This document shows positions 3,995-61,053 of a stretch of 64,000 bases of DNA, piece by piece. The notes under the pieces are model-generated. The model did no database searches. It was not told the origin of the DNA and saw only the letters and a program-made list of their open reading frames with translations. The stretch comes from a virus (Duplodnaviria; Caudoviricetes), in IMG/VR virus record IMGVR_UViG_3300037067_009225, positions 1-64,000 of that record; one strand, given 5' to 3'. Each line of letters opens with the position of its first letter. Position 1 is the first letter of the stretch. The translations under genes and the position numbers were made by a program.

Positions 3995-4456
3995 TTAAAT
4001 TAAAATTAATAATTTTATTTGTCTATTAAATCTTTTTATATATGGATTTATCGTATCTCTTAATAATAAAACATGTAAACGAAAATCATTATCATTATTT
4101 GTAATATTTTTTGGATCACCAATATATTTTTCAAATAATTTATACATCTTAACTGGTGTTATTTTATTTGTTCTATTATTTTCATTTATTTCTAATAAAT
4201 ATGATAAAATATTTACAACTTTATTTTTTTCAGCATCATTATCAGATTCGTATACACCCCACCTACTTGTATAATTAATTAATAACATTTCAACTTTTGT
4301 ACTTGTTGGTTGAATTGTATCTTTAACATCAACATTAATAAATTTATTGAATTTTTCAATTATATAATCATAATTGGATGCAAATACACTATTATCACAG
4401 CTTTTATTAAAAAGTAGTGTGAATTCTATAAGATTTTCTATTTGTTTTAATTCCAT
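3995..4456 (-). CDS. hypothetical protein with C-terminal RxxK tag (RQIKLLIL)
   Basis: ORF; tail motif. Confidence 0.65.
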   Translation of the reverse strand: MELKQIENLIEFTLLFNKSCDNSVFASNYDYIIEKFNKFINVDVKDTIQPTSTKVEMLLINYTSRWGVYESDNDAEKNKVVNILSYLLEINENNRTNKITPVKMYKLFEKYIGDPKNITNNDNDFRLHVLLLRDTINPYIKRFNRQIKLLILI

Positions 4457-4489
4457 AATTAAAATATTATGGTAAATATAATATTAATT

Positions 4490-4714
4490 TCACAAATAAT
4501 CAAGTTTTACGTAATCAGAATAATCAATAATTACTTCTACCATTTTACCTAAATAATTTAAATCTGAAAATTCTTCAAAATCAGTAAAATAATGCAAACT
4601 TTTAATTTTCTCTTTTAGAGTTATTTTATCATCACCTTGAATATTGTCATAATTTTTAAAGAAATTATAAAAATGATGTAAATCTTCATCTTGAACATAT
4701 ATTTTAATTTTCAT
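4490..4714 (-). CDS. hypothetical protein
   Basis: ORF in operon. Confidence 0.55.
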   Translation of the reverse strand: MKIKIYVQDEDLHHFYNFFKNYDNIQGDDKITLKEKIKSLHYFTDFEEFSDLNYLGKMVEVIIDYSDYVKLDYL

Positions 4715-4736
4715 ATTTACTATTTACTTTTTTTAT

Positions 4737-4997
4737 TTAAATGTGAGATAACGATTCTTTAATAATAGAATTAATTTCGTTTTTAACAAAAATCAATTTA
4801 TCATTATATTTAAATCTTAAATAAAATACTGGAAAAAATATTAATATTATAGACCACATTAAAAATGCTCTGATAAACCAAAAAGGCTTTAATATAAATC
4901 TACCAGTTTTATTAACACAAGACCAATCTTGAAAAATGTATTGATTATATACAAAAATTAAAAAGTTAATTAATGTTAGTTTAATTGAATTATTCAT
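4737..4997 (-). CDS. hypothetical membrane protein
   Basis: hydrophobic segment. Confidence 0.55.
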   Translation of the reverse strand: MNNSIKLTLINFLIFVYNQYIFQDWSCVNKTGRFILKPFWFIRAFLMWSIILIFFPVFYLRFKYNDKLIFVKNEINSIIKESLSHI

Positions 4998-5244
4998 TGT
5001 TAATTAAATTATTTTTTTCTACCAATTTTATATCAAATTCATCTCTTAATGTTTCATAAGCAGATAATACATATATCCTATTAAAATTATTAAGTTTACT
5101 TAATCTTTCTTTTATTTTAATTTTTTTATCTTTATTTAAATTTTCAAAGAAATCTGACAAATCTAAATATTCAAATTCAAACTTATTAATTTCATTAACA
5201 TAATCTAATGTATCAAAATATTTATCTAAATTAATTTTAAACAT
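4990..5244 (-). CDS. hypothetical protein
   Basis: ORF overlapping next gene. Confidence 0.55.
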   Translation of the reverse strand: MFKINLDKYFDTLDYVNEINKFEFEYLDLSDFFENLNKDKKIKIKERLSKLNNFNRIYVLSAYETLRDEFDIKLVEKNNLINNE

Positions 5245-5341
5245 ATATAATTTTTTATTTTTATATATTATTTATTATAGGTTCAAATTGATTTTTAATT
5301 TAGATTATTGGTGGGATGTGAAAATGTTTAAGTTTTAAAAA

Positions 5342-5614
5342 TTATTCTTCAAAACCTTCTAAGTCTTCTAATTTAACACCAATTGGTCTTAATCCATATG
5401 GTGTGGCATCTAAATAATAATCAAACGTATAACCTATTGCTTCTACTTCTTTCAATAAATTTTCTAATACATCATAAGTATCATTTTCATTCTCATATTT
5501 AGATAAAATATCTTTCAATTCTTGTGGTTGCATTTCTGGATGCTCAAATAAATCATAATATTTTTCACCATGATTTTCATTTATGAATTGATTGAAATTT
5601 TTAATATTACTCAT
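5342..5614 (-). CDS. putative head-internal protein (leader MSNIKNFNQFINE)
   Basis: CTS-like leader; TAATATATA at 5635-5643. Confidence 0.6.
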   Translation of the reverse strand: MSNIKNFNQFINENHGEKYYDLFEHPEMQPQELKDILSKYENENDTYDVLENLLKEVEAIGYTFDYYLDATPYGLRPIGVKLEDLEGFEE

Positions 5615-8046: not shown

Positions 8047-8049
8047 AAT

Positions 8050-9793: not shown

Positions 9794-10186
9794 TTATAAA
9801 TTTATATTTTCTAATTTTCTTTTTCTTAAAATCTTTATATCAAAAACATTATCATAATATTCTTTTAAATCCAAAATATAATACATTTTATTTTTAATAT
9901 GTGTATGTGTTTGTTTTTGTTTTTCTTCTTTAACAAAATTCATTAATTCTGATAATCTTTCTGAATATTCATTTTCATTAAAAAGAATATGTATTATGTT
10001 ATGTAAAAAATAATCTTTTGTATTATAGTTTCTAATATTTTTGTATTTAATATCTTCACTATACAAACCAAAACCAAAAAAATAATATGAATTTTTTAAA
10101 TCAATACCTGGTATGGATGTGATAATGCAAATGTTATTATTTCTTAAATATAAAATAAAATCATCATATGTATTAAATTTCATCAT
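9794..10186 (-). CDS. paralog family A, RxxK tag
   Basis: MKFNTYDDF...LDLKEYYDNVFDIKILRKRKLENI. Confidence 0.7.
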   Translation of the reverse strand: MMKFNTYDDFILYLRNNNICIITSIPGIDLKNSYYFFGFGLYSEDIKYKNIRNYNTKDYFLHNIIHILFNENEYSERLSELMNFVKEEKQKQTHTHIKNKMYYILDLKEYYDNVFDIKILRKRKLENINL

Positions 10187-10554
10187 TCCAAACCAATTTT
10201 ATTTAATTTTTCTTTTCTTATTTTTTTAATATCAAGAACATTATCATAATAATTTTTTAAATCTAAATAAGATATAATAATATTACCTTTTTGTTTTTCA
10301 AAGATAAATTTATTCAGTTCTAATAATCTTTTTTTATCATCATTTTTATCGAAAAGAATATGAACAAAACTTAAAAAATATTTTTCTTTAAAAAATATAT
10401 TATTATTTTGACTATAATAAGGAACATATTTTGAATTATCTTCACCAGAATCATCTTCACCAGAATCATCTTCACCTAAATTATAATTACTTGTATGTAC
10501 ACCATTATATTCTAAAAAATTAAGAAAATCATCATATTTATTAAATTTCATCAT
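10183..10554 (-). CDS. paralog family A, RxxK tag
   Basis: MKFNKYDDF...LDLKNYYDNVLDIKKIRKEKLNKI; GEDDS tandem repeat. Confidence 0.7.
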   Translation of the reverse strand: MMKFNKYDDFLNFLEYNGVHTSNYNLGEDDSGEDDSGEDNSKYVPYYSQNNNIFFKEKYFLSFVHILFDKNDDKKRLLELNKFIFEKQKGNIIISYLDLKNYYDNVLDIKKIRKEKLNKIGLE

Positions 10555-10976
10555 TCCAAGCCAATTTTATTTAATTTATTTTTCCTTATTATTTTTATAT
10601 CCATAAATTTTTCATAAAACTCTTTTAAATCTAAATATAAATATTCATAATGTGACGAATTACCATAATATTCATAATTATCTCTACAATCAGAACGAAT
10701 AATAGTTAAAATATCTTCTTTTTTTAATTCTAATTCATCACCAGTATAAAATAATTCTAAAAACTGATAAAAAACATCATATGTTGGTGATGAATTTTCA
10801 TAATGTGTTGCTTCTCCACCCCAACAATTACCACCACTATATCCATAAACATTTTCTTCTATATAGATATAATCAGAGCCAGATATATTTATATCACTAA
10901 TACAATCATAATAAAAAACACCATTTTGATTTAAATATTCTAAAAATTCATTATATGTTTTAAAATTATTCTTCAA
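10551..10976 (-). CDS. paralog family A, RxxK tag
   Basis: EYYGN...LDLKEFY..DIKIIRKNKLNKIGLE. Confidence 0.7.
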   Translation of the reverse strand: MKNNFKTYNEFLEYLNQNGVFYYDCISDINISGSDYIYIEENVYGYSGGNCWGGEATHYENSSPTYDVFYQFLELFYTGDELELKKEDILTIIRSDCRDNYEYYGNSSHYEYLYLDLKEFYEKFMDIKIIRKNKLNKIGLE

Positions 10977-11418
10977 TGCCTATATTATTTAATTTTTTTA
11001 ACCTCATTTGTTTTAAACTCAATCTTGAATTGTAATATTCTTCAACTTTCAAAGTATTTACATTATAATTGTAATAATTACCATAATAATCAGAATTACC
11101 ATCATAATCATATTCAGATATGAAATGATTTAAAACATTATCAAATTCGTCATCAAATTCTTTATCTTCAAAAATTAAACTTAAAAATGATTTAATATTT
11201 TCAAAAGTTGCTACTTCAGCTTCAACATCGTGATAACCATCTTCACAATTTTCATCACAGCTATGAAAACAACAATATCCATGACTACCACCAATTATAT
11301 GTTCATCTTTAATAATGTATTCATTATCATCATTTTTTTCTAAAATGTCTGATATTTTAGAATTTTTAATAAAATCTATTAATTCATTGAATGATTTAAA
11401 GTTTTTCATATTTTTCAA
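10966..11418 (-). CDS. paralog family A, RxxK tag
   Basis: DYYGN...RLKKLNNIGIEE. Confidence 0.7.
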   Translation of the reverse strand: MKNMKNFKSFNELIDFIKNSKISDILEKNDDNEYIIKDEHIIGGSHGYCCFHSCDENCEDGYHDVEAEVATFENIKSFLSLIFEDKEFDDEFDNVLNHFISEYDYDGNSDYYGNYYNYNVNTLKVEEYYNSRLSLKQMRLKKLNNIGIEE

Positions 11419-26808: not shown

Positions 26809-27666
26809 ATGAAGCCTTTTAGAATTAATAAAAGAATTTCCCAAAACGATGAGTCTAAATCTCTTGATTCTTATTTCAGAGATGTCCGTAAAATTGATTT
26901 GTTATCTGTTGATGATGAAGTTGCTTTGATACAACTTGCACAACAAGGTGATAAAAAAGCTAAAGAAAAAATAATCAATGCAAATTTAAGGTTTGTTATA
27001 TCTGTTGCAAAACAGTATCAAGACCAAGGTTTGTTGTTACCTGATTTAATTAATGAAGGTAACATTGGATTGATTGAATCTATTAACACCTTTGATTTGA
27101 CTTTTGGTTATAGGTTTATATCTTATGCTGTTCATAGAATAAGAATGCATATTATAAAGTCTATTTGTGATAATTCAAGAATTGTTAGATTACCTCACAA
27201 TAAACTTTCTGATATCAACAAATTGAAAAAAATTATCAGAAAGAAAACACAAGAGCTTCAAAGAGAACCTTATCCAGAAGATTTAGTTTCAGAAGAATTT
27301 CCTTTGGAATATGTAAACTATTTGCTTTTTATAAGCAAAGAAACATCAAATCTTGAATCACCAACATCTAATGATGAAGAAAATAAACTTATTGATACTA
27401 TTGAAGATTCTAATTCAATTAAACCTGATGAAAATTCTAATAATTTATCTTTAAAAACTGACATCAAAAGGTCTTTAAATGTATTAGAAGAAAAAAAAGA
27501 AAGACAAATTATTGAAATGCTTTTTGGGATAGATAGAATTGAAATGAATATTGATGATGTTGCTGAATATTTTGGTTTAACTAAAGAATGTATCAGACAA
27601 ATAAAAATAAAAGCTTTAAGAAAAATTAAAATGACTAATGAACATATCTTATCTACACATCTTTAA
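26809..27666 (+). CDS. RNA polymerase sigma70 factor, Bacteroidota RpoD-like (no region 1.1)
   Basis: ANLRFVISVAKQYQ, DLINEGNIGLI, FISYAV, region 4 LTKECIRQIK.KAL.K. Confidence 0.92.
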   Translation: MKPFRINKRISQNDESKSLDSYFRDVRKIDLLSVDDEVALIQLAQQGDKKAKEKIINANLRFVISVAKQYQDQGLLLPDLINEGNIGLIESINTFDLTFGYRFISYAVHRIRMHIIKSICDNSRIVRLPHNKLSDINKLKKIIRKKTQELQREPYPEDLVSEEFPLEYVNYLLFISKETSNLESPTSNDEENKLIDTIEDSNSIKPDENSNNLSLKTDIKRSLNVLEEKKERQIIEMLFGIDRIEMNIDDVAEYFGLTKECIRQIKIKALRKIKMTNEHILSTHL

Positions 27667-31693: not shown

Positions 31694-32038
31694 ATGACAG
31701 AAAAATTAAAATATTATTTAAGAAAATATCCTGATGTTATAACACTATCTAATTTTAAAGGTGTTAAAATGTTGTTATTAAATGAACTAAATTTTAATAA
31801 TAATAATAATTATATTAAATATTTATTCAAAGAATGTTTTAAGAGTAACATTTTTTATGTTAAAGTTTATAATCGAAGTCGTTATTCTGGTATAGGTATG
31901 GATGTGTATCAAAAAATTTTACATAAAATACATAAAAATAAAGAATTTTATTATTTTCGAACATATTTATCTGAATCATCAATATGGTCGGATGTATTAA
32001 AAACAAGAAAAGAAAAAATAGAATCAATTTTCAATTAA
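31694..32038 (+). CDS. hypothetical protein, RxxK tag (RKEKIESIF)
   Basis: TATATTTG at 31666-31673; tail motif. Confidence 0.65.
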   Translation: MTEKLKYYLRKYPDVITLSNFKGVKMLLLNELNFNNNNNYIKYLFKECFKSNIFYVKVYNRSRYSGIGMDVYQKILHKIHKNKEFYYFRTYLSESSIWSDVLKTRKEKIESIFN

Positions 32039-32047
32039 AATTAAAAA

Positions 32048-32473
32048 ATGAGAAAAGTTTTAGAAAATATTAAAGATGATATAGTTTTTTATTTAAAAGA
32101 AAAAAAATTAAATATATCTGACAATGATTTAATTTCGGAACATTTTGGAAAATTATTATTCAAAAATAATTTAAATCACACTATAGAAATAGCTTTTCAT
32201 CCAGCAATAACTAAATATAACATAGAAGATATATTTAAAAAAATTGAAAATAAATATTTACATTACATATTAAAAATAAACATGATTAATAAAAACAACA
32301 ATAATTATTATAGTCTTATAAGAATTAAAATAACTTTAAGAACTAAACAAGAAATAAGGAAATCAAAAATAAAAGATATATTAAATATAGATGATAATTT
32401 AAATATAAGAAAAGAATATAATGATTCAGATTTAGAAAAAGTAATTAAATTCCAGCCAATAATATTAAAGTAA
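32048..32473 (+). CDS. hypothetical protein, near-terminal RxxK tag (RKSKIKDIL)
   Basis: ORF in operon. Confidence 0.6.
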   Translation: MRKVLENIKDDIVFYLKEKKLNISDNDLISEHFGKLLFKNNLNHTIEIAFHPAITKYNIEDIFKKIENKYLHYILKINMINKNNNNYYSLIRIKITLRTKQEIRKSKIKDILNIDDNLNIRKEYNDSDLEKVIKFQPIILK

Positions 32474-32476
32474 AAT

Positions 32477-32815
32477 ATGAGAAAAATAACAACAGGTATA
32501 GATTCAGAATTATTAGATGTAATAAAAAATTCTAACATAATTTATGTTTCAGATTTCTATGGTATTAGAATATTAGTTTTAAATAATGGAACAAATTCTA
32601 ATTATTTTCAACTAAATCTTAATTGTTCAGATAGATTATATGATTTGTGTTTAAAAAACAATATAAATATTATAGCAAGAGAAAATCGTGACAATAAAAA
32701 TACATATATGTTTTATCGTATATTAAACTCTAAATATAGTGAGTATATAAATTTTAATGATGAAAAAGTTTTAAAAAATTATATTAGAGAACAAAAAATA
32801 AAATCTATAATCTAA
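32477..32815 (+). CDS. hypothetical protein, RxxK tag (REQKIKSII)
   Basis: ORF in operon. Confidence 0.6.
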   Translation: MRKITTGIDSELLDVIKNSNIIYVSDFYGIRILVLNNGTNSNYFQLNLNCSDRLYDLCLKNNINIIARENRDNKNTYMFYRILNSKYSEYINFNDEKVLKNYIREQKIKSII

Positions 32816-33201
32816 TGAATGATGAATATAATGATTTAGATGAAGCTATAAATGATGCTATATTTGAAAAAGAAATTAACGAAAAAATAACATATAATGA
32901 AATTTATTTCTTAAAAATATCAAATATAACATTTTTAGTTTTTAATTATACTAGTATTTTTCATTATTATAAAAAAGAATTTTTAGAAAATTTTTTTATT
33001 TATTTATATAATAAGAAAAAAATTAATTACATATTAATTAAACAAACTTATGGTGATATAAGTGGTGTACACGAAAAATTTGATTTATGTACGATATCAT
33101 CATCAGGTAAATTTAATAAAATAAAAAGAAATTTAAATAATATTAATAATATTAATTCAATTATAAGAACTTACAAATTAAAAGAAATAGCTAATGAATA
33201 A
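32815..33201 (+). CDS. hypothetical protein, RxxK tag (RTYKLKEI)
   Basis: ORF in operon. Confidence 0.6.
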   Translation: MNDEYNDLDEAINDAIFEKEINEKITYNEIYFLKISNITFLVFNYTSIFHYYKKEFLENFFIYLYNKKKINYILIKQTYGDISGVHEKFDLCTISSSGKFNKIKRNLNNINNINSIIRTYKLKEIANE

Positions 33202-33529
33202 TTATGATGATTTATTAATAGAGTGTGGTTGTAATATAAGAAAATATAATGGTATTAAAATACTTTATATTAACAACAATGATGTAAAAATACCAAAAGA
33301 ACAATATGATAAATTTTATGCGAATGGGTTTCGTTTAATATGCCAAGAAACTTTTAATACAAAATATTTTGGATTTGAAATTAACACTGAAGTTTTAGGT
33401 CAACATGTTTTTCATTATATTAGACCTGATGGTATAGCAGAATTAGTAATTATTAAAAATGATTTAGATTTAAATAAATTTATTAGAAAATTAAAAATGG
33501 TAGATATATTAAAAATAAAAACCACTTGA
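33194..33529 (+). CDS. hypothetical protein, RxxK tag (RKLKMVDIL)
   Basis: ORF in operon. Confidence 0.6.
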   Translation: MNNYDDLLIECGCNIRKYNGIKILYINNNDVKIPKEQYDKFYANGFRLICQETFNTKYFGFEINTEVLGQHVFHYIRPDGIAELVIIKNDLDLNKFIRKLKMVDILKIKTT

Positions 33530-34116: not shown

Positions 34117-34122
34117 ATTAAA

Positions 34123-35024: not shown

Positions 35025-35348
35025 ATGGATAATATTATAACCAAAAATATTAAAAAATTCACAGAGAATTATGTGAACACTATTCTATATAATAAAAAAG
35101 TGAAATATATTTTTTATAAAAATGATGAATGTATTGATGTCGAAATTAGTATATTACCTGAAAAATATAGGAAATATTTTATGGATTCTATTAAAACAAA
35201 ATTTAATAACTATATTAAAGATATGTATTATTCTGATTATGATAAATATGATCAATCATTATGTTTAACAATTTATTTAAAAGATAAAGTGGAATTAAGA
35301 AAAGAAATAAGAAAAGAAAAAATTAAAGATATTTTAGAAGAAAGTTAA
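35025..35348 (+). CDS. paralog pair B, RxxK tag (RKEKIKDIL)
   Basis: MDNIITKNI similar to 35389 ORF. Confidence 0.65.
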   Translation: MDNIITKNIKKFTENYVNTILYNKKVKYIFYKNDECIDVEISILPEKYRKYFMDSIKTKFNNYIKDMYYSDYDKYDQSLCLTIYLKDKVELRKEIRKEKIKDILEES

Positions 35349-35388
35349 AATAAATTAAACTATTTGTGTTTTTTAAGATATTAATGTT

Positions 35389-35712
35389 ATGGATGATATA
35401 ATAATTAAAAATATTGTAGATTTCGCAAATCAATGTATGAATAATGTTATAAAAAATAAAAATACATTTATCACTAATGTATGTAATATTATTGACAATA
35501 AAAAAATTGTTATTGATATACATCCAGAAGTACAAACAAAATATTTCAACCTTATTGTTAATGCTATAAAAAAAGAATTTAAAGAACATGTGGATAATGT
35601 ATATTTATCATATGATAGTAAATATGAATTTTTTATTAATATAACATTAAAAGAAATAAAAAAAACAAGACTTGAAAAAATTAATAAAATTTTTGATGAT
35701 GGGAACATATGA
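35389..35712 (+). CDS. paralog pair B, RxxK tag (RLEKINKIF)
   Basis: MDDIIIKNI. Confidence 0.65.
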   Translation: MDDIIIKNIVDFANQCMNNVIKNKNTFITNVCNIIDNKKIVIDIHPEVQTKYFNLIVNAIKKEFKEHVDNVYLSYDSKYEFFINITLKEIKKTRLEKINKIFDDGNI

Positions 35713-36151
35713 TGAATTAAATGGTGATTTGATATTTTTAGCTAAACTTGGTCAATTTGATGTTATAGCTCATGGTTGTAATTGTTTTTGTGCAATGGGA
35801 GCTGGTATAGCTAAACAAATAAAAAAAGAATTTGATGATGCTTATTTAATGGATTGTCAAACAAAAAAAGGAGATTATAATAAACTTGGTAATTATACTA
35901 AAGCATATCAACATGGTGTTTGGATATATAATTTATACATACAATATGAATATGGTACTGATAAAATTCAAATAGATTATGAATCTTTAACACTTTGTTT
36001 AAGAAAATTAAATAGAGAATGTAAAGGAAAAACAATTGGTCTACCTTTAATTGGTTGTGGTTATGCTGGTGGAGATTGGGAAAAAGTTAAACAAATAATT
36101 AAAAAAGAACTATATAACATGAATGTAAAAATAATTTTTTATAAAAAATGA
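35696..36151 (+). CDS. macrodomain (ADP-ribose binding/hydrolase) protein
   Basis: GDL..IAHGCNCFCAMGAGIA..PLIGCGYAGGDW. Confidence 0.88.
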   Translation: MMGTYDELNGDLIFLAKLGQFDVIAHGCNCFCAMGAGIAKQIKKEFDDAYLMDCQTKKGDYNKLGNYTKAYQHGVWIYNLYIQYEYGTDKIQIDYESLTLCLRKLNRECKGKTIGLPLIGCGYAGGDWEKVKQIIKKELYNMNVKIIFYKK

Positions 36152-36504
36152 ATAGAATTACAATAATATATGATAAATCTGAATATGAATTTGAACTTTT
36201 AGAATATCAAGTTAATAGAAATATGAGGGTATTTACAAATTTAATTGAATTAAATATTAAAATATATATTAATAATATTAATTTTTTTACGAATATTAGA
36301 AATTCATATTTAAAATTTTCTTGTAAAATCTTAGGTTCTGGTTTTCATGGGTGTTATATCAATGATATTGATGTCGATCATACTTCTTCTACTATGACAA
36401 TAAATATTAAACCAGATTATTTTGTTCTTAGAGAAGAATCAAAACCTGAAATTAGATTAAAAAAAATAAAAGAAATATTCAATGAAGGTTTTGATACACA
36501 CTAA
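36148..36504 (+). CDS. hypothetical protein, RxxK tag (RLKKIKEIF)
   Basis: ORF in operon. Confidence 0.6.
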   Translation: MNRITIIYDKSEYEFELLEYQVNRNMRVFTNLIELNIKIYINNINFFTNIRNSYLKFSCKILGSGFHGCYINDIDVDHTSSTMTINIKPDYFVLREESKPEIRLKKIKEIFNEGFDTH

Positions 36505-36874
36505 AAAATGGACATATCCATTTGAATTATATTCTGTATCAACACCAGTTGAAACTAATAATACATCTACACATAATAAACCAGAATATAAAATATATTT
36601 AGAAATAGAAAAAAATAATGTTAATTATACTTTATTAATTACTTTTCTAAAAGATATAAATCATAATATTTTTTCAGATACTTATTTATGTGATTTTATT
36701 ATGGATAATGGTAACAAAGTGTGTGTCAACAATTGTAAAATAGGTGTTAATAATTATTATGAAATAGATAAATATTATCAAGTGTTAATAATAACAACAC
36801 AGAAAGTTGAACTTTTTTCAATTAAAAAAATAAGATTCAAAAAATTAAAACAAATATTTAATATGATGACATAA
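36482..36874 (+). CDS. hypothetical protein, RxxK tag (RFKKLKQIF)
   Basis: ORF in operon. Confidence 0.6.
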   Translation: MKVLIHTKKWTYPFELYSVSTPVETNNTSTHNKPEYKIYLEIEKNNVNYTLLITFLKDINHNIFSDTYLCDFIMDNGNKVCVNNCKIGVNNYYEIDKYYQVLIITTQKVELFSIKKIRFKKLKQIFNMMT

Positions 36875-38961: not shown

Positions 38962-39011
38962 TTTTTTTATTATAAATAATATTAATATATTTGCAAAATA
39001 AAATAAACAAT

Positions 39012-40703
39012 ATGGAAAACACTGAAATGAATAAGAATTTACCCGAAAAAGTTGATAACATCTCTGAAACTAATGTTCAACCTACTGTTGAAACTACAAA
39101 AGAAAAAAGAAATATAGTAGTAACTATAACTGGTGAAAGAGAAATTATTCAAAGAGAAGCTATTCACCAAAAATTTGTTGATGCTAACGTAGAAATGTTG
39201 GCAACAGGTAATTTACCTTATTATGGTGAATTTAACTTATTTTTGAACTTCCATGAAGCTAATATTGGAACTTGTGGTGTTAATGTTTCAAGTAAGGGTA
39301 TGAATTTTTATTGGGATCGTTCTTTTGTTGATTCACTTGAACAAAAAGAAGCAAATTTCATTCTTATTCATGAAGATTTCCATCTTTTGTTTGATCATAT
39401 CAAACGTACTATTGGTTATGAACAAAAATTATCCAATATTGCTCAAGATATGATTATTAATCAGATTATCTATGATGATGTAATGAAATCAAGTTCATTA
39501 AAGGGATTTCTTCAAATTCCTATTAGCCACGATGAATTTATTAAATTTCCTGATGGTAATTATTTGATGGATGAAAAAGGAAATAAGGTTAAGAACCCAC
39601 ATTATGGTAAAAACACTGCTATGTTTGTACCTAAAGAATATAAAGGTAATTTGATTTTTGAAGAATTATATGAATGGTTGTTGAAAAAATATAACGATTA
39701 TAAAAATCGGCAAGGCCAAGGCCAAGGTCAGAAACAACAAGGACAAGGCCAAGGTCAGAAACAACAAGGCCAAGGACAACAACAGAAAGGCCAAGGTCAA
39801 CCACAACAAGGTCAAGGCCAAGGTGAAGGTCAAGATGGTGAACAGGGTCAGAATAGTCAACAAGGCCAAGGACAAGGTGAAGGATCACAAGACAAGAATA
39901 ATAAAAGTAACCAGAAACAAAAAGGTGGTTGTGGTGAAAAAGGTGACGAACCTGATTATGGCGATTATGGACAAAATGGTACTGAAATGTCACACCTTGA
40001 TAAAATCTTTGAAAATCTTGAACAAAGTAAAGGTCAAACTTTAGATGTCCATCTTGGTGATGAAATTCCAGAAGAATTGAGAAAAGAGATTGTAAAGGAT
40101 ATTATTGAAAATCTTAAATCACGTGGTTTAGAAAGTGGTGAAATGCAAACCATTTTGAATAAATTAAGAAAATCTAAGAAAGATTATCTTAAAGAAATCA
40201 AAAGAGCAATTGCACAAGATATTTTTGGCACATCAAAATCCAAAACTATCACTAGGCCACATCGTAGGGGTGTTGATGGTCTTAAAGGTCATCGTAAATT
40301 TAAGAATAAGATCAATTGTCTTCTTGATACATCTGGTTCTATGGGTGGTGAATTTGAAAAAGTTCTTTCATATATTTTTCAGAATGATGTTGAAATTAAT
40401 CTTATTCAGGTTGACACAAAAATACAAAGTGTTAATATTATTAAAAACAAAAAAGACCTTGAAAAGATGAAAATTAATGGTCTTGGTGGTACTGAACTTC
40501 AACCTGGATTAGATATGATTAGTGACAAGAAAAATAAACTTGATGTTTATAATACTGTCATTTTAACTGATGGTTATACAGATTCATTGAATTTCTCTGG
40601 CATTAAAGGTAAAACTTTAATATTAACTACGGCAAATAAATGTCCTTTAACACATGATAATGGTCGTGTTAAGCAAATTATAATTGATAAAGAAAAGAAT
40701 TGA
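39012..40703 (+). CDS. DUF2201-type metallopeptidase-like plus vWA domain protein
   Basis: HEDFH; NIAQD..IN; GQ-rich linker; DTSGS MIDAS, GGGT-like, TDGY. Confidence 0.85.
   Translation: MENTEMNKNLPEKVDNISETNVQPTVETTKEKRNIVVTITGEREIIQREAIHQKFVDANVEMLATGNLPYYGEFNLFLNFHEANIGTCGVNVSSKGMNFYWDRSFVDSLEQKEANFILIHEDFHLLFDHIKRTIGYEQKLSNIAQDMIINQIIYDDVMKSSSLKGFLQIPISHDEFIKFPDGNYLMDEKGNKVKNPHYGKNTAMFVPKEYKGNLIFEELYEWLLKKYNDYKNRQGQGQGQKQQGQGQGQKQQGQGQQQKGQGQPQQGQGQGEGQDGEQGQNSQQGQGQGEGSQDKNNKSNQKQKGGCGEKGDEPDYGDYGQNGTEMSHLDKIFENLEQSKGQTLDVHLGDEIPEELRKEIVKDIIENLKSRGLESGEMQTILNKLRKSKKDYLKEIKRAIAQDIFGTSKSKTITRPHRRGVDGLKGHRKFKNKINCLLDTSGSMGGEFEKVLSYIFQNDVEINLIQVDTKIQSVNIIKNKKDLEKMKINGLGGTELQPGLDMISDKKNKLDVYNTVILTDGYTDSLNFSGIKGKTLILTTANKCPLTHDNGRVKQIIIDKEKN
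39711..39890 (+). repeat. Gly-Gln low-complexity coding repeat
   Basis: CAAGG(C/T/A) units encoding QGQGQG. Confidence 0.85.
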
Positions 40704-40708
40704 TATGA

Positions 40709-40735
40709 AAACCCACATGAAAGTGTGGGCTTTTT
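40709..40735 (+). terminator. intrinsic terminator
   Basis: CCCACAT-GAAA-GTGTGGG plus T tract. Confidence 0.7.
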
Positions 40736-40823
40736 AATTATTTTCCAAAAAAAACTTAAATAATTTTTTTATTCCAAAAATAAATGTTAATTTTGAATTA
40801 TAAATTAAAAAACAAATAAATAT

Positions 40824-42098
40824 ATGATGAAAAATGCACTATCAAGATTCACAGGAATCTCCGAAACTGAAATCAGAAAACGTCTTGAAAAACTCACCAT
40901 CAAGGAATTGAAGTATTTCAAGATTATGTTGGCAAAGTCTGGCGTGTTGTACATCACCAGTAAGCCAGGTATTGCTAAATCCGCTATCATCAAATCAATT
41001 GCTGATAAGTTGGGCTTTGCTTTTTACGACATTCGTTTGTCTATGGTTGATGAAACTGATGTTGGATTGTTCCCTAAAGTTGGTACTGTAACTGTTAATG
41101 GTGTTGAATGGGATATTCTTAAACACGTTCCACCTGAATGGGGCTTTCTTGCTAACGAAAAACCTTCTATCATCTTCTTTGAAGAGTTGAATCGTTCACA
41201 GCTTTCAGTTCGTAATGCTGCTCTGCAGATTCTTCTTGAACGTTCCATTGGTTTCAAGTTTCATTTCAACGATAACGTTCTTATGGTTGCCTCTGGTAAC
41301 TTGGGTGAAGAAGATGGTACAGATGTTGAAGAATTTGACTCGGCTCTTAACAATCGTCTTATTCATGTTAAGCACCTTTTGACTATTGAAGAATGGGTTG
41401 ATGGTTTTGCAAGAGAACATGTTCATCCGACTATCGTTTCTTTTGTCACTACAAATGGTGAACATTTCTATAAGAAAAGTGATAATGAAAAGGATAATTA
41501 CGCTTATGCAACACCACGTTCATGGACATTCTTATCCGATTACATTAACACCAATTTTCCTCCTGTTCAGGATACCGATAAGAATGGAAACCTTATTTTT
41601 GTCAACAGCAAGAACCAAATTGTTGATGAAAAAAACCCTGATGCTATGCCTAAAATGAAGTATGCTCCAATAAAGCAATGGCTTGGCGAAATTAAAGATA
41701 TTGGTGTATCATATGTTGGCCCATCAATAACAAGGTTCATTCGTTACTGTGAAGAATCTATGAGAATTTCCATCAAAGATGTTATTGATCGTTATCCTGA
41801 CATCAAGAATGACCTCAAATCATTCAACAGAGATAAGCATAGCGAACTTCTGAATTCTCTTAAAGAAATCGACATCATGTCGCTGAAAGATGTTCAGTTG
41901 GAAAACATCAAGGAATTCTTAACTTCAATGTCAGATGATGAAGTTGTTGGATATCTTCTCTATCTTCTTGATGACCAGTACAGCTTGAATGATGATACCA
42001 ACAACAAGAAAAACATGAAGGTTAAGGATTTCATCAAGGATAAGAGGTTTAAAAAGTTCTTCAAAACTATCCTTGACCATTGCTCAAAAGAAGATTAG
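40824..42098 (+). CDS. MoxR-like AAA+ ATPase
   Basis: SKPGIAKS Walker A variant, FFEELNR Walker B, ASGN, ALNNR, ATPRSW. Confidence 0.85.
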   Translation: MMKNALSRFTGISETEIRKRLEKLTIKELKYFKIMLAKSGVLYITSKPGIAKSAIIKSIADKLGFAFYDIRLSMVDETDVGLFPKVGTVTVNGVEWDILKHVPPEWGFLANEKPSIIFFEELNRSQLSVRNAALQILLERSIGFKFHFNDNVLMVASGNLGEEDGTDVEEFDSALNNRLIHVKHLLTIEEWVDGFAREHVHPTIVSFVTTNGEHFYKKSDNEKDNYAYATPRSWTFLSDYINTNFPPVQDTDKNGNLIFVNSKNQIVDEKNPDAMPKMKYAPIKQWLGEIKDIGVSYVGPSITRFIRYCEESMRISIKDVIDRYPDIKNDLKSFNRDKHSELLNSLKEIDIMSLKDVQLENIKEFLTSMSDDEVVGYLLYLLDDQYSLNDDTNNKKNMKVKDFIKDKRFKKFFKTILDHCSKED

Positions 42099-42197: not shown

Positions 42198-42539
42198 ATG
42201 ATCTCAAAAGAAAAAATATTAAAAGAAATTGATATTTTACATATTGATAATAGTATAAAAGAAAAATATAAAAATTTCTTTATTTCTCATATACAAAATC
42301 AACATAATGATAAAAATATGATAATAGATGTATGGTTTATATGTAAATATGTTATATTAAATTTTTCACCTTATTGTAATAATACTAATGATTTTAATTC
42401 TATTGGTGTAAGTGTAAAATTTACTTATATTAAAAATAATATAGAAAATAGTGGTAATTTATCAATAACCATAGATGATATATATGATTTTTTAAATAAA
42501 GAAAGAATTGATAAAATAAAAAATATAATCAATGAATAG
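42198..42539 (+). CDS. hypothetical protein, RxxK tag (RIDKIKNII)
   Basis: ORF; tail motif. Confidence 0.6.
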   Translation: MISKEKILKEIDILHIDNSIKEKYKNFFISHIQNQHNDKNMIIDVWFICKYVILNFSPYCNNTNDFNSIGVSVKFTYIKNNIENSGNLSITIDDIYDFLNKERIDKIKNIINE

Positions 42540-43104
42540 CGATTTTTTAGATAAAAAAAAGGAAGAATTAATAATACATATTAATAACAATTTCCCATAT
42601 TGTTTTTTCTGTGGTAGCTTATCTTTAAATATGCTGGAATTGATAAATAGACCTATACATGATGTTGATATTTGTGTACCTATAAAATATAAAAAACAGG
42701 CCATAGAATATTTTTACAAATTGAAAAATAAAGATAAACAATCTTTTATAAAAAAAATTATAAACTTTTTTGATTTTTTTTCAAAAAATATAGATTTAAC
42801 ATCAAAGTACATGAGATTAAATATACAAGGCATAGATATTTGTATATTTTTTGAAAATGAATATAGGTGTATATTACATAAATTAAACTATTCTAAAATT
42901 AGAATAAGTTTTCCAGAAAATATCATAAAAGCAAAAAAGATTTATGTGAAAACAGGGTATTCTCATTATGATAATGAAACTTTAAAAAACAATATGGAAA
43001 AACATCTTAATGATATAAAATCATATGAGAAAAATAAAGAAAAATATATTAAAAAATTAAAGTTAAAAGATATTTTGGGTGAAGTAAAAATAATAAATCT
43101 TTAA
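42532..43104 (+). CDS. nucleotidyltransferase-like protein
   Basis: CGSLSL..RPIHDVDI (GS..DxD), IDI, KH..D; tail KKLKLKDIL. Confidence 0.6.
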   Translation: MNSDFLDKKKEELIIHINNNFPYCFFCGSLSLNMLELINRPIHDVDICVPIKYKKQAIEYFYKLKNKDKQSFIKKIINFFDFFSKNIDLTSKYMRLNIQGIDICIFFENEYRCILHKLNYSKIRISFPENIIKAKKIYVKTGYSHYDNETLKNNMEKHLNDIKSYEKNKEKYIKKLKLKDILGEVKIINL

Positions 43105-52142: not shown

Positions 52143-52195
52143 ATAATATATTTATTTTTTAACAAGTTGATATCAACAATGTTTTTTAATTTGTT

Positions 52196-53201: not shown

Positions 53202-53492
53202 TTATCTTTTTTTAAACATTGTTAAAATTTTTTTAATTGTTTTAGTTAAAAAATTATTGTTTATTTCTTCAATTTTTATCTTTCTATTATGTTGTGTTAT
53301 TAGTTTATCTAATTCTTTAATGAATGTTTTATTATCATGTTTTATTATTTCTTCTTGTATCTTCGCATTTATATGAATATAAAAAAAACTTTTATAATAA
53401 TAATTCTCCGATTTATCTAACCAATCAAGATTATTTATTTTATTAGTTACATTATAATATCTATTATTAAAAGTAGAAGACATATTATTCAA
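53202..53492 (-). CDS. small protein, RxxK motif (RKIKIEEI)
   Basis: ORF in operon. Confidence 0.55.
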   Translation of the reverse strand: MNNMSSTFNNRYYNVTNKINNLDWLDKSENYYYKSFFYIHINAKIQEEIIKHDNKTFIKELDKLITQHNRKIKIEEINNNFLTKTIKKILTMFKKR

Positions 53493-53667
53493 TTATACTA
53501 TTAATTTTTAAAATTCTATCATGTTTAAGTTTTCTTTTTTCTATCATTTCTACAAACTTTTCACTATTTAAATATATCATAATAGATTTTTCTTTTGTAG
53601 TAAAATTTTTTTCAAAAAAATCTGTTAATTCTTGTATTTTTATATATTGATAATTCTTAATCTTCAT
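53485..53667 (-). CDS. small protein, RxxK tag (RILKINSII)
   Basis: ORF in operon. Confidence 0.55.
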   Translation of the reverse strand: MKIKNYQYIKIQELTDFFEKNFTTKEKSIMIYLNSEKFVEMIEKRKLKHDRILKINSIIE

Positions 53668-53896
53668 TTCTAATAATTTTTTCTATCTTCTGCTTTCTTT
53701 CCCATTTTAGATATTCACTTTTTATTCTTTTAACGAAAATAGAATTCTCAATTCTTGAATCTATTTTATCTTTATTATTGGAATAAAAATCATAAAATTT
53801 TTCATTACCATTTTTAGTTAACCAATCTTTATTAATGAAAAAATTTCTATAAATTTCAGTATCAACATTATTTACATGTTTTTTAAATTTCATCAT
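53657..53896 (-). CDS. small protein, RxxK tag (RKQKIEKII)
   Basis: TATATTTG at 53915-53922. Confidence 0.6.
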   Translation of the reverse strand: MMKFKKHVNNVDTEIYRNFFINKDWLTKNGNEKFYDFYSNNKDKIDSRIENSIFVKRIKSEYLKWERKQKIEKIIRNED

Positions 53897-53965
53897 ATTT
53901 TAATTTTTATAATACAAATATAATAGTTTTTTTTGATATAATGTTATATTATGTAGATATTTTAA

Positions 53966-54220
53966 TTACAAAATATAACCTTTTAATTTTTCTAATTTAA
54001 ATTTTCTCGATAATTTATGCGCCTTATCATACCACCTATTTATAAATTCAGTAGAAGTATTTTCAAACATAATATATTCAAGTAATGTTGCATATCTTGA
54101 AGAATGAAATATTTGATAAACTTCTTCCATAAATTTTACTTTATCATCAGATTTTATTTTATTTGATGTGTAAACTGAAATTATTTCATTATATTTTTTA
54201 TATAATTCGTTTTTATTCAT
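53966..54220 (-). CDS. small protein, RxxK tag (RKFKLEKL)
   Basis: ORF; tail motif. Confidence 0.6.
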   Translation of the reverse strand: MNKNELYKKYNEIISVYTSNKIKSDDKVKFMEEVYQIFHSSRYATLLEYIMFENTSTEFINRWYDKAHKLSRKFKLEKLKGYIL

Positions 54221-57503: not shown

Positions 57504-58190
57504 TTAAGAAATTTTTTCTTTTTTTCTTTCAACAATTTCATCAACAGCACCGTATTCCTTCGCTTCTTGTGCTGTCATCCAAAAATCTCTATCACCATCT
57601 TTTTCAACTTTTTCAAATGGTTGACCAGTTTTATCTACAACAATATTATAAAGTTCTTTCTTCGAAAGATTAACTTCATTAGCTACGATTGTAATATCGC
57701 TTGCTTGACCTTCGACACCACTCATTGGCTGGTGTAAGAGAAATCTTGAATGTTTCAAAGCTGAACGGTAATCACCACAAATTGAAATAATAAAACCCAT
57801 TGATGCAGCAAGTCCACAAACGAGTGTATTAACTTTATTTGGAATATAATTCATAGTATCAACGATACTAAGTCCTGAATACACCCCACCACCAGGAGAG
57901 TTAACATACAGATTTACAGAGTTTTGATCTTTTGAAGCTAAAAATAACAACTGAGCATTAATGATATTGGCAACTGTATCATCAATTCCTGTTCCCAAAA
58001 ATATAATATTATCCATCATCAAACGAGAAAAAACATCCATTTGAGTCACATTCATTTGTCTTTCTTCCAGAATTGTGGGGGAAATGTAACTGGCGTGAAT
58101 ACTATTCATTTTATTCACATAAGAATCAATAGAACTACCACTAACTCCAAGATTACAAGTTGAAAATCTGTAAAAATCATTTCTTTTCAT
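57504..58190 (-). CDS. clpP: ATP-dependent Clp protease proteolytic subunit
   Basis: DVFSRL, NSPGG, GLAASMG (Ser), LHQP (His), DRDFW (Asp); TATATTTG at 58235-58242. Confidence 0.95.
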   Translation of the reverse strand: MKRNDFYRFSTCNLGVSGSSIDSYVNKMNSIHASYISPTILEERQMNVTQMDVFSRLMMDNIIFLGTGIDDTVANIINAQLLFLASKDQNSVNLYVNSPGGGVYSGLSIVDTMNYIPNKVNTLVCGLAASMGFIISICGDYRSALKHSRFLLHQPMSGVEGQASDITIVANEVNLSKKELYNIVVDKTGQPFEKVEKDGDRDFWMTAQEAKEYGAVDEIVERKKEKIS

Positions 58191-58286: not shown

Positions 58287-58583
58287 TTATTCATTAAATA
58301 TATTATTTAGTTTATTTTGTCTTAAAATTTTAGTAAAATTATTTTTTAGATGATATTCAATAATATTAACAATAGATGAATTATCCATTTTTAATTTTCC
58401 AACAATATTATCATAATCATTTTTTGTAAAATCAAAAGATAATTTAAATTTTTCTGATGTTTGTTTATTTTTTAATAATACATTAATGTGTGTTACTGAC
58501 ACACCATAACTAATGAACCGATATTCATCAACACCAGTTTTTGCTTCATAATCTAATAATTCATAATCATTAAAACTGATCAT
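58287..58583 (-). CDS. hypothetical protein, RxxK tag (RQNKLNNIF)
   Basis: ORF; tail motif. Confidence 0.6.
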   Translation of the reverse strand: MISFNDYELLDYEAKTGVDEYRFISYGVSVTHINVLLKNKQTSEKFKLSFDFTKNDYDNIVGKLKMDNSSIVNIIEYHLKNNFTKILRQNKLNNIFNE

Positions 58584-58969
58584 AATATTGATTTTATTTT
58601 CTTAACTCTATAAAAATTTTTAATATCATTTTCGTCAGAACTATTAGGGTATTTCATTTTTAATAAAAGAACAGTAATTCTAATTAATAAATATATTGGC
58701 ATTAAAAAAGGAAAAAATACTATTATTGTTTTAAAATTACTATTAAAATTAGCCTTATATAAACAAAAAAAAGAAATTATATACCACGAAGCCCAAAACA
58801 GTTGAAATAATGATATAAATAAATCTTTTTCTCCATAAAAGAAAAGAATAATTATTGGAGAAAATGAAATAATAACAGATGATATTATTAAAGTTGGTAA
58901 AATTGCTGATAATTTTTTTTGAACTTTACCACCTATTTCAACAGTTTTTATTAAAAAAATATTTTTCAT
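58580..58969 (-). CDS. membrane protein, paralog pair D, RxxK tag
   Basis: FFPFL.PIY..KYPNS.DE..KNF.R.KKIK shared with 59423 ORF. Confidence 0.65.
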   Translation of the reverse strand: MKNIFLIKTVEIGGKVQKKLSAILPTLIISSVIISFSPIIILFFYGEKDLFISLFQLFWASWYIISFFCLYKANFNSNFKTIIVFFPFLMPIYLLIRITVLLLKMKYPNSSDENDIKNFYRVKKIKSIL

Positions 58970-59469
58970 ATAATTGATATATTATTTATAATTTTTTGCA
59001 TTTTTAGAAATCGTTTAATATTATTATCATATTTTATAAACATATTTGAGTTTAAATAATTAGAATATGTATAATAACCATAATAATGTTTATGAGGTAA
59101 TTCAACTTTTATTTTTAAATCTATATTTTGACTTTTTGTAAATGATTCAAAATCTTCAATGATATAAACCTCACCTATAATTAGTCTATTATCGCCATAA
59201 TTATCAACACATAAAACTTTATCACCAGCTTCAATATTTCTTCTATTTAATATTAATTTATTATTATATGTATTTTCATCAATATTTGTTTCATCTTCTT
59301 TAACAAAAACAGTTTTAGAATATTTTTTTGAATATCCTATTAAATATAAATTATCATTATTAATTTTTGAAACAATATATTTATTGTTTAAAACTAATTC
59401 TTTATAGTTATATATGTTATCTTTATATATGACTATCATATAATTTTTTAATTTTTTTAATTCTTTCAA
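58966..59469 (-). CDS. hypothetical protein, RxxK tag (RFLKMQKII)
   Basis: ORF; GDKVLCVD SH3-like segment. Confidence 0.55.
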   Translation of the reverse strand: MKELKKLKNYMIVIYKDNIYNYKELVLNNKYIVSKINNDNLYLIGYSKKYSKTVFVKEDETNIDENTYNNKLILNRRNIEAGDKVLCVDNYGDNRLIIGEVYIIEDFESFTKSQNIDLKIKVELPHKHYYGYYTYSNYLNSNMFIKYDNNIKRFLKMQKIINNISII

Positions 59470-59833
59470 AATTTTTTAAATACTCTTCATCGTCACTATT
59501 TGGATATTTACTTTTTAAATATTTAACTAATAATTTTGTTGATACATATATAGGAAATAAAAATGGGAAAAAACACACTATAATTAAAAAATTATATTTA
59601 AAATGTCTTTTAAAACTATAAAGTATAAATATAGAAAGGTATACCCATAAATAAATAAATAAATAAAAATATTTAATTATATCATTATCAATTTGTATAA
59701 TATTATTCGGGGTGCTGAACAAAAAAATAACATAAATAACCATAAATATATAAATAAATTTACGATATTTATAAAATTTTCTTTCAACTTCACCACTAAT
59801 ATTCAAATTTGGTATATTAAAAGGATCAAACAT
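59423..59833 (-). CDS. membrane protein, paralog pair D, RxxK tag
   Basis: same motifs as 58580 ORF. Confidence 0.65.
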   Translation of the reverse strand: MFDPFNIPNLNISGEVERKFYKYRKFIYIFMVIYVIFLFSTPNNIIQIDNDIIKYFYLFIYLWVYLSIFILYSFKRHFKYNFLIIVCFFPFLFPIYVSTKLLVKYLKSKYPNSDDEEYLKNFERIKKIKKLYDSHI

Positions 59834-60168
59834 TATAGTATATTTTTAATTTTTTTAATTCTAATATATTTATTATATTCTTCTTTTGAAAATATTTTAT
59901 CACATTTTTTACATATATATGAATGATAAATTTTATCGTAATATATTTTATGATTAAAAATTTTACATCCTATGATTTTATTATATGGTTTTATAAAATT
60001 ATCAATAATGAAATAATATCTAACATCTTTATAAAAAAATATATTTTTCAATAAAGATAATACAGATATTAATTTAATTAAAGTCAAATTATTATAAAAT
60101 AAAGACAACTTATTATATGTTATTCTTGGATCACACCACCAATCATATATTGAAAAATTTTCTCTCAA
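59833..60168 (-). CDS. paralog family E (C..H...CxxC zinc motif), RxxK tag
   Basis: MRENFSI..WW; CKIFNH..CKKC; RIKKIKNIL. Confidence 0.65.
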   Translation of the reverse strand: MRENFSIYDWWCDPRITYNKLSLFYNNLTLIKLISVLSLLKNIFFYKDVRYYFIIDNFIKPYNKIIGCKIFNHKIYYDKIYHSYICKKCDKIFSKEEYNKYIRIKKIKNIL

Positions 60169-60512
60169 AATAAACTTTTAATTTTTTTAATTCTAATATA
60201 TTTATTATAATTTTCTATTGTAATTTCTTTACCACATCTAAAACACTTATATGTGTAACTTATTTCATTAAATGTATATTTATGATTAAAAATTTTACAT
60301 TTAAAATTTAAAAAAGGTTGTTTAAAATTATCATATATAAATAATTCTCTTTCATAATTATATCTAATGACTTTTTTTAATAATTTTAAAACAGATGATA
60401 GTCTAATAAAAAACACTTTTAATTTTATATTAGATTTATATTGTGTATGATCAATTGTATATAAGTATCTTGGGTGTTTCCACCAATTTAATATAGAAAA
60501 ACTTTCTCTCAA
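60165..60512 (-). CDS. paralog family E, RxxK tag
   Basis: MRESFSILNWW; CKIFNH..CFRC. Confidence 0.65.
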   Translation of the reverse strand: MRESFSILNWWKHPRYLYTIDHTQYKSNIKLKVFFIRLSSVLKLLKKVIRYNYERELFIYDNFKQPFLNFKCKIFNHKYTFNEISYTYKCFRCGKEITIENYNKYIRIKKIKSLF

Positions 60513-60850
60513 AATATACTTTTAATTTTTTTAATTCTAATGTAATTATTATAGGTTTCTCTTGATATTTCTTTATTACATCTAAAACATGTACACGTAT
60601 TTGTATCATCAAATATATATTCATGATGAGATAAATAACATCTTAATTTTTTAATAGGATAAATAAAATTATCTGTTATAAAATATTTTCTTTCATAATT
60701 ACTTATAATAACCTTTTTAAATAAATATAAAATTGATAATATTTTAATAAGATATTTATTTCGATATTTATATTTTCCTTCTTTTTTATTGAAATACATA
60801 ATACATTTTGGGTATCTCCACCAGTTTAATATAGAAAAACTTTCTCTCAT
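60509..60850 (-). CDS. paralog family E, RxxK tag
   Basis: MRESFSILNWW; CYLSHH..CFRC. Confidence 0.65.
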   Translation of the reverse strand: MRESFSILNWWRYPKCIMYFNKKEGKYKYRNKYLIKILSILYLFKKVIISNYERKYFITDNFIYPIKKLRCYLSHHEYIFDDTNTCTCFRCNKEISRETYNNYIRIKKIKSIF

Positions 60851-61053
60851 AATATGTTTTTAATTTTTCTTTTTCTTATGTAAGATTTATATTCATCTTT
60901 TGTTATTTTTTTATAACATTTGAAACATAAATAAAAAGGTTTTTCTAAATTTCCAACATTTTTATAATCATGTCCAAAAAAATAACATAAAATTTTATTA
61001 AGTTTTTTCCTTATTATAAAAATAATATTCAATCTGAAATTATTCATCATCAT
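60847..61053 (-). CDS. paralog family E (DUF1660-like), RxxK tag
   Basis: LCYFFGHDY..CFKC; RKRKIKNIL. Confidence 0.6.
   Translation of the reverse strand: MMMNNFRLNIIFIIRKKLNKILCYFFGHDYKNVGNLEKPFYLCFKCYKKITKDEYKSYIRKRKIKNIL

Follow-up and report, generated by a model that had tools for sequence, protein, structure and literature searches.

The first 64 kb (64,000 nt, hereafter the window) of a 113.9-kb viral contig with a G+C content of 22% (IMG/VR record IMGVR_UViG_3300037067_009225) encode many proteins that end in one short peptide tag, R-x-x-K-[ILM]-x-x-[IL], and over the whole contig about a quarter of the genes are tagged. Selection acts on this peptide, and the same tag occurs on unrelated phages of 25-37 kb that have neither ClpP nor a Clp-type ATPase. 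The explanation we favor, with about even confidence, is that the tag serves early proteins as a portable helix for docking or addressing and is read in trans: unrelated small, fast-evolving orphan proteins would share one C-terminal helix as a common handle for one trans-acting partner recognizing the whole early repertoire, and a Clp-type protease, phage-encoded in huge phages and host-encoded in small ones, would be a candidate for that partner. The literature searched holds no description of such a C-terminal tag. The contig is about 16% complete by CheckV, and the nearest relatives of its UvsX and DUF2201 proteins are found in uncultured phages of 634-735 kb (LR756501-4 and LR745206). A paper on huge phages (PMC7162821) assigns these relatives to the 'Mahaphage' clade and predicts Bacteroidetes as their hosts; its main text never uses the term 'C-terminal'.

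The tag is enriched at protein C-termini

The strict tag pattern (R..K[ILM]..[ILM]) has 38 matches in the 109 open reading frames (ORFs) of the window, and 33 of these lie within 12-15 residues of the C-terminus. One of the 33 was rejected as a tag, the motif belonging to region 4.2 of a sigma-70 family factor, which leaves 32 truly tagged ORFs and confirms the original prediction of a tag on about 35 window proteins. All 13 tails quoted in that prediction are present at the named ORFs, with its coordinate for plus-strand genes marking the gene start and the tail sitting at the opposite gene end; NadE, SbcDC, PolB, RtcB, and ClpP lack the tag, as it had stated. On the whole contig, 42 strict matches fall in the last 20 residues of 172 ORFs, compared with 0.35 expected from whole-protein shuffling and 1.2 from tail-only shuffling (maximum 5 in 500 shuffles), an enrichment over the K/I-rich background of about 35-fold relative to tails of equal composition. 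The controls on the contig gave 10 internal matches (4.4-8.5 expected), 5 matches of the reversed motif, and 1 match in the first 20 residues.

Selection acts on the peptide

A nucleotide-level signal belonging to the next gene, be it a translation-initiation region or a recombination site, or an artefact of AT-rich composition could produce a similar pattern, and both the 22% G+C of the genome and the more frequent tight coupling of tagged genes to the next ORF (27/42, against 26/68 for other small genes) speak for it. However, the codons at the four conserved tag positions follow the usage of the whole genome (AGA makes up 88% inside the motif and 81% overall; ATA about as frequent as ATT), and in the relative LR756502, at 31% G+C, the tag persists with its conserved residues written AGA/AGG/CGT/CGA and TTA/CTA/TTG/CTT. 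Between 0 and 12 residues separate the tag from the stop codon, and the next start codon follows after a gap of -47 to +593 nt, so the tag is not fixed relative to the next gene, the arrangement that the original prediction had named as evidence against itself. Fifteen of the 42 tagged genes have no tightly coupled downstream ORF, several being followed by gaps of about 80-590 nt. As to composition, matched shuffles give 1.2 matches where 42 are observed, and AT-rich control loci, the flanks of ClpP relatives (L002-L033), contain a single tag in 598 ORFs. Selection on the peptide, not on the DNA, follows from the genome-like codon usage, the different codons in LR756502, the variable gaps, and the uncoupled genes. 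The scarcely credible nucleotide-level or artefact explanation is already refuted by the codon, gap, shuffle, and control-locus tests. Two further candidates were dropped: a termination-reinitiation signal, given the 15 genes uncoupled from the following ORF and their gaps, and an integron-like cassette end, since many tagged genes overlap the next gene and their codons vary.

The tag is carried by unrelated proteins

After removal of the tails, the 43 tagged proteins of the contig fall into 34 BLAST clusters, and 122 tagged proteins including those of relatives fall into 109. The claim that the tagged proteins are mostly unrelated thus holds at the BLAST level, with a few paralogue sets (in the window, 9794-11418, 59833-60850, 35025/35389, and 58580/59423). 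They do not form a single paralogous family through shared descent of whole proteins at this level, and ankyrin, SH3-like, zinc-ribbon, and membrane bodies were all seen, in agreement with the predicted occurrence on soluble, membrane, and zinc-finger proteins. Pfam matches were obtained for 1 of 80 and about 1 of 33 tagged proteins, and PHROGs likewise recognizes almost none. A search of the ESM Atlas returned unnamed viral clusters only, a related-locus search with ORF 61040 returned no relatives, and a homologue search with a zinc-ribbon ORF returned itself and one paralogue. Members of the zinc-ribbon family have a predicted zinc ribbon followed by a helix at residues 99-114, and several tagged proteins have membrane segments. 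One tagged protein consists of ankyrin repeats (Pfam Ank_2, E = 2e-35) when read through one in-frame TAG. Its gene lies beyond the window (L061:9898-10296, minus strand; contig 73898-74296), with the TAG at a consensus ankyrin position (...GHTALI*AAIQG..., the asterisk marking the TAG). Because TAG acts as a normal stop elsewhere in the contig, this one is a pseudogene, a sequencing error, or a local read-through. TAG recoding of the contig was rejected, as further stops come after TAG in almost all cases.

The most informative body is that of a tagged family in the relatives, comprising 2216 cluster representatives, with a predicted SH3-like barrel at residues 1-62 (AlphaFold2 predicted local distance difference test score (pLDDT) 82; VIA Z 6-7) and an extra predicted helix at residues 61-72 (block pLDDT 91). 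The arginine of the tag (R0, position 0) does not vary (145 of 145 members); position 3 can be K, Q, or R. The endings co-vary between K-L-x-x-L-G-I-COOH and K-I-x-x-I-L-x, the latter being the form in the window, so endings with and without G interchange within one protein family. Within the tag, position -1 co-varies with position 3, and positions 4/7 with 8/9, while co-variation between tag and body is weak. The motif is missing from tandem-repeat relatives of the family and stands only at the C-terminal end of a two-domain form, which makes the tag a terminal module separable from the body. Three large proteins (P0014, P0031, and P0068; 289-1217 aa) contain 3-10 tandem copies of the SH3-like body that is tagged as a single domain.

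These data also bear on whether the helix is an intrinsic element that has no common reader, i.e., a generic C-terminal cap or an oligomerization helix stabilizing small domains. The high pLDDT of the SH3-like family helix, its invariant R0, and the co-variation of the tag positions among themselves are in line with such an element, but the same residues recur on ankyrin, zinc-ribbon, membrane, and SH3-like bodies, in more than 100 BLAST-unrelated proteins. The occurrence of the SH3-like body in tandem without the helix and the weak tag-body co-variation also argue against it, and a mean net charge of the tag of about +2.7 in the contig phage argues against self-association. We therefore consider an intrinsic element unlikely.

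The tag is predicted to form a helix with one conserved face

The consensus of the tag is [IL]-R-x-x-K-[IL]-x-x-I-[LIF] followed by 0-8 residues in the contig, and [LIW]-R-[DE]-x-[KQR]-L-x-x-L-G-I-COOH in the relatives, where 59 of 80 tags end exactly two residues after L7 with the non-polar L-G-I-COOH. In the 63 ORFs of the relatives that end in [LIMV]-G-[ILVM], R stands at -10 in 58, K/R at -7 in 52, and L/I at -6 in 62. The conserved residues (R, K/Q, L, and L) are spaced i, i+3, i+4, and i+7 and would line one face of a helix; the opposite face is variable, lysine-rich in the contig and acidic in the relatives. The tag is thus predicted to be a portable C-terminal alpha-helix of about three turns, and the combination of one conserved face and a free opposite face reads as the signature of a docking surface. 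Most of the predicted description as a portable amphipathic-helix label stood, since the tag is portable, protein-level, helical, and C-terminal on unrelated bodies. The word 'amphipathic' is imprecise, because the hydrophobic stripe itself contains the conserved R/K and the hydrophobic moment is small (mean 0.30 in the contig and 0.21 in the relatives).

A basic helix that binds membrane or nucleic acid, in the manner of the membrane-targeting helices of MinD and FtsA, would also be C-terminal, basic, and hydrophobic, and 40% of the contig tags score as lipid-binding by a HeliQuest-type discriminant. Yet the moments of the tags are below the 0.41-0.61 calculated for the MinD/FtsA helices, 69% of the relatives' tags are under the lipid-binding threshold with a net charge near 0 to +1, and the basic residues do not flank the hydrophobic face as in helices of the MinD/FtsA type. 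The low hydrophobic moment points to protein docking rather than membrane binding, and we regard the membrane or nucleic-acid explanation as very unlikely.

The tag also does not match two known kinds of docking peptide. With R at position 0 and neither Q nor an aromatic pair, it differs from the PIP-box or clamp motif (Q-x-x-[LIM]-x-x-[FY]-[FY] or QL[SD]LF), and it does not mimic the [LIV]-G-[FL] loop that docks to ClpP, since the relatives end in L-G-I or L-G-L and only 3 of 42 contig tags have the G. A PDB profile search of the tails gave chance-level matches only. The best of these was the zero-layer segment of an R-SNARE (VAMP2, ...ERDQKLSEL...), where the core layers of the coiled coil follow the same i, i+4, i+7 spacing as R, L, and L of the tag; the E-values were 0.4-1, and the SNARE segment is inside a 60-residue helix whereas the tag is a terminal helix of three turns.

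Most tagged genes have an early-type motif upstream

Two kinds of upstream motif were found in the contig: the early-type, host-type TAnnTTTG, which lies upstream of the sigma factor, ClpP, SbcDC, the AAA gene, and the tagged arrays, and the late-type TAATATATA, which precedes the terminase, structural genes, and proteins with an N-terminal leader like the capsid-targeting sequence (CTS) of T4. The nearest upstream motif is TAnnTTTG for 30 and late-type for 10 of the 40 tagged genes, compared with 31 and 62 of the 93 other genes, giving an odds ratio per gene of 6 (p = 1e-5) with classes defined by crude regular expressions and with about ten operons rather than independent genes. The predicted link between tagged operons and TAnnTTTG-type promoters was therefore seen at the motif level. 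Because the tagged genes are mostly in operons behind host-type motifs, these results suggest that they are early genes.

This timing bears on a capsid-targeting or cargo-loading signal that would pack the tagged proteins into the virion. In its favor, larger genomes have more tagged genes, and there are precedents by analogy: cargo is loaded into encapsulins by C-terminal peptides, and R293/K296 are used by the C-terminal helix of the P22 scaffold. Against it, the tagged genes are mostly behind early-type motifs while a separate T4-CTS-like leader is behind the late-type one, and the tag is common to phage groups with unrelated terminase and structural genes, making virion packaging highly improbable. 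The T4 CTS (on IPI-III and Alt) resembles the tag in that a single short conserved signal marks highly polymorphic phage proteins that are otherwise unrelated, but the CTS is N-terminal, late, and cleaved whereas the tag is C-terminal on early-type genes. The encapsulin peptides likewise are C-terminal tags of about 10 residues addressing unrelated cargo, but they are extended and G-S-L-rich, bind the shell interior, and would not fit the timing of the tagged genes. The tag is predicted to be helical and has no G-S-L core, and no encapsulin was noticed, although no search was aimed at a shell gene.

Several observations concern the leader itself. It has the sequence MKHLKLFEEY or similar ones (window 17524, 18729, 23725, 33549, 48230, 51825, and 52196; L034 22907-33330), is conserved between the contig phage and LR756502, and is mostly on proteins without the C-terminal tag; the four paralogues at 9794..11418, which begin with a MKFNxYDDF-type leader, have both. 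The late-type motif, TTAATATATA(A/T), resembles the T4 late promoter (e.g., window 33957-34122, 52143-52195, and 62003-62094; contig 86-89 kb) and lies upstream of the terminase, structural genes, an M16 peptidase, and leader proteins (MK-x-[IL]-K-x-F-x-x-F). The M16 (insulinase/MPP-like) peptidase (window 62331-63458, minus strand) might process the N-terminal leaders.

The tag occurs in huge phages and in unrelated small phages

In a 41-kb stretch of LR756502, 17 of 73 ORFs are tagged. A DNA pattern for R-D-x-K-L-x-x-L-G-I plus a stop codon identified 24 viral stretches, 21 of them with real tags and tagged neighbours (up to 15 of 34 ORFs), compared with 21 chance-level matches in 596 Gb of prokaryotic genomes, none at an ORF end, and no match in 400 Bacteroidota genomes. 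Patterns for the tag form without G had to include the -1 isoleucine, since without it AT-rich DNA gave too much noise. Counts over whole records reach 22-32 tags per huge phage with reversed-pattern controls near zero, and LR756501 and six ClpP-bearing control contigs have no tags. By these pattern searches, the tag is lineage-wide in related huge phages and confined to viruses among the sequences searched.

Four phages of 25-37 kb, of which two are complete and have terminal repeats, also bear the tag, with 2-3 strict tags each plus looser variants. Together they have 10 strict tags in 195 ORFs, compared with 0.65 expected, with 4 of the 10 found by construction of the search. The small phages have a Terminase_3-type large terminase, and tblastn detected no protein common to them and the contig or huge-phage loci. 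No ClpP, no match to an AAA_2 (Clp-type) unfoldase, and no AAA/vWA homologue turned up in them, and an end ORF of the one that is a provirus (G015) has no match in 61 Bacteroidota genomes.

A Clp-type protease is a candidate reader

The original prediction placed the reader in the phage, as ClpP or the AAA/vWA machinery encoded in the window. This is unsupported: the small unrelated phages are tagged without ClpP or a Clp-type ATPase, so the machines named earlier cannot be the sole reader, and LR756501 has both the AAA and the vWA gene without tags, which disfavors that pair. Since unrelated small phages without these Clp genes share the tag, the partner is more likely a machine of the host, or one with a host counterpart, than a protein special to the contig phage. 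The most concrete candidate, which we put forward tentatively, is a Clp-type protease, with the reader being the phage ClpC-like unfoldase and ClpP in huge phages and host Clp in small ones. ClpP lies beside a tagged array in the window, behind an early-type motif, and beside one in a 476-kb relative. It is present in every near-complete tag-rich huge relative, and the two relatives without it have no tags (LR756501) or few (G002). A ClpC-like unfoldase (707-752 aa, two-ring AAA+) is present in all six huge relatives tested (LR756502, LR756501, G002, G007, G009, and G012). Detailed examination covered only the LR756502 copy (L096:1045-3168; LR756502 440544-442667), which combines a UVR motif with a VGF ClpP-docking loop and, in place of a Clp_N domain, has an acidic low-complexity N-terminal extension of about 65 aa.

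If the reader is a Clp-type protease, the tag could be a C-terminal degron, by which early proteins are removed on schedule by the phage-encoded (huge phages) or host (small phages) AAA+ protease; in a variant, the tag tethers the proteins to the protease as adaptors that deliver bound host targets. The association of ClpP and the unfoldase with tagged phages, the VGF loop and absent N-domain of the LR756502 copy, and the anchoring of the relatives' tags at a non-polar free C-terminus agree with a degron. Known AAA+ protease signals and adaptors (the ssrA tag, the MuA C-terminus, and the SspB XB tail) are likewise short C-terminal peptides common to unrelated proteins and read by one machine, the ssrA- and MuA-type signals being read by ClpX. 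The tag differs from them in being a capped, confidently predicted helix with one conserved face rather than an unstructured tail, in lacking any sequence match to them, and in occurring in phages without Clp genes (ClpP and AAA_2 unfoldase). In the contig phage, 0-12 variable, often acidic residues come after the tag, so that the signal there would not include the free carboxylate. Moreover, a ClpP-bearing 270-kb phage (G017) has no tags, LR756501 retains the unfoldase yet is untagged, and the co-occurrence of Clp and tag rests on few, related genomes. A degron is thus possible, but we do not consider it probable.

We also consider, as a quite unlikely elaboration of the docking helix, an address code in which the helix would plug early effectors into a Clp-type machine and each variable body would deliver a different host target for unfolding or destruction. 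The tag would then mark the whole early effector repertoire of the huge-phage clade and would have spread to unrelated small phages. Such a code, if true, would be the bacterial-virus counterpart of F-box/PRANC adaptors. The PRANC/F-box-like motif of poxvirus ankyrin proteins also combines variable binding bodies with a short C-terminal helical handle, one that links to a degradation machine, and one tagged protein of the contig is likewise made of ankyrin repeats; that machine is the eukaryotic SCF system, and the analogy to the tag is functional only.

Several points weigh against a docking helix read in trans on early proteins. The SH3-like family helix is confidently predicted and its R0 is as invariant as core residues, so it may pack on its own body. 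The early assignment draws on regular-expression promoter classes over a small number of operons, TAnnTTTG is not enriched over the contig as a whole, and upstream of small-phage genes it occurs at chance level only. The part of the small-phage tag count that the search itself selected also reduces the weight of that comparison.

Huge phages have hundreds of unannotatable orphan genes, and if one handle is common to a tenth to a quarter of these, a single reader would define a pathway for thousands of proteins. The tag would also offer a simple sequence rule to pick out, in metagenomic phage genomes, the genes that are early or directed at the host, and short transferable tags of this kind are useful as tools.

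Tagged ORFs and neighbouring genes of the window

The tagged ORFs of the window, the candidate partners, and the excluded sigma factor are listed in Table 1.

Table 1. Positions of tagged ORFs and of genes discussed as partners or exclusions (window coordinates)
Feature	Position	Strand	Tail or remark
Tagged ORF, 153 aa	3995..4456	-	NRQIKLLILI, tag 4001-4024; weak homologue in LR756502 also tagged
Tagged ORF, 106 aa	7726..8046	-	LRKKKINNI then 12 aa; tag 7765-7788
Four tandem paralogues, 130/123/141/150 aa	9794..11418	-	LRKRKLENINL, IRKEKLNKIGLE, IRKNKLNKIGLE, MRLKKLNNIGIEE
Two tagged ORFs, 135 and 57 aa	12015..12576	-	ERLLKLKTLIET, LRKYKLTEIYNEISFI
Sigma-70 family factor, no tag	26809..27666	+	RQIKIKAL within region 4.2
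Array behind TAnnTTTG motif, tagged ORFs 31694, 32477, 32815, 33194	31694..33529	+	TRKEKIESIFN, IREQKIKSII, IRTYKLKEIANE, IRKLKMVDILKIKTT
ORF in array 31694..33529	32048	+	Motif 30 aa before protein end
Tagged ORFs 35025, 35389, 36148, 36482	35025..36874	+	IRKEKIKDILEES, TRLEKINKIFDDGNI, IRLKKIKEIFNEGFDTH, IRFKKLKQIFNMMT
Tagged ORF, 164 aa	38467..38961	+	ERIIKIKDILSDE
DUF2201 metallopeptidase/vWA protein and AAA ATPase, both untagged	38991..42098	+	Partner candidates of the original prediction; disfavored
Tagged ORF 42198 and looser variant 42532	42198..43104	+	ERIDKIKNIINE; 42532, KKLKLKDIL then 8 aa
Tagged ORF, 64 aa	45277..45471	+	IRKTKLERINDN
Tagged ORF, 60 aa	47077..47259	+	IRQEKIRSILHNA
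Tagged ORF, 115 aa	51269..51616	-	LRKIKIHNLLNKS
ORF 53202	53202	-	Motif 19 aa before protein end
Tagged ORFs 53485, 53657, 53966	53485..54220	-	DRILKINSIIE, ERKQKIEKIIRNED, SRKFKLEKLKGYIL
Phage ClpP, untagged, candidate partner	57504..58190	-	Behind TAnnTTTG motif
Eight tagged ORFs, array just upstream of ClpP	58287..61053	-	58287, 58580, 58966, 59423, 59833, 60165, 60509, 60847
Membrane paralogues in array 58287..61053	58580, 59423	-	
Zinc-ribbon paralogues in array 58287..61053	59833, 60165, 60509	-	Ending YIRIKKIK[NS][IL][LF]

Other genes of the contig were noted alongside these. A free-standing LAGLIDADG endonuclease gene (window 55755-56543, plus strand) lies between RtcB and a 264-aa ORF of no known function, and the ribonucleotide reductase gene (contig 97367-101215, minus strand) contains an intein with a LAGLIDADG domain. 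Inside a tagged array at contig 66265-67517 (minus strand) are a NUDIX and a nucleotidyltransferase gene, both untagged; a homologue of the nucleotidyltransferase with 44% identity lies close to ClpP in a 476-kb relative (L048).

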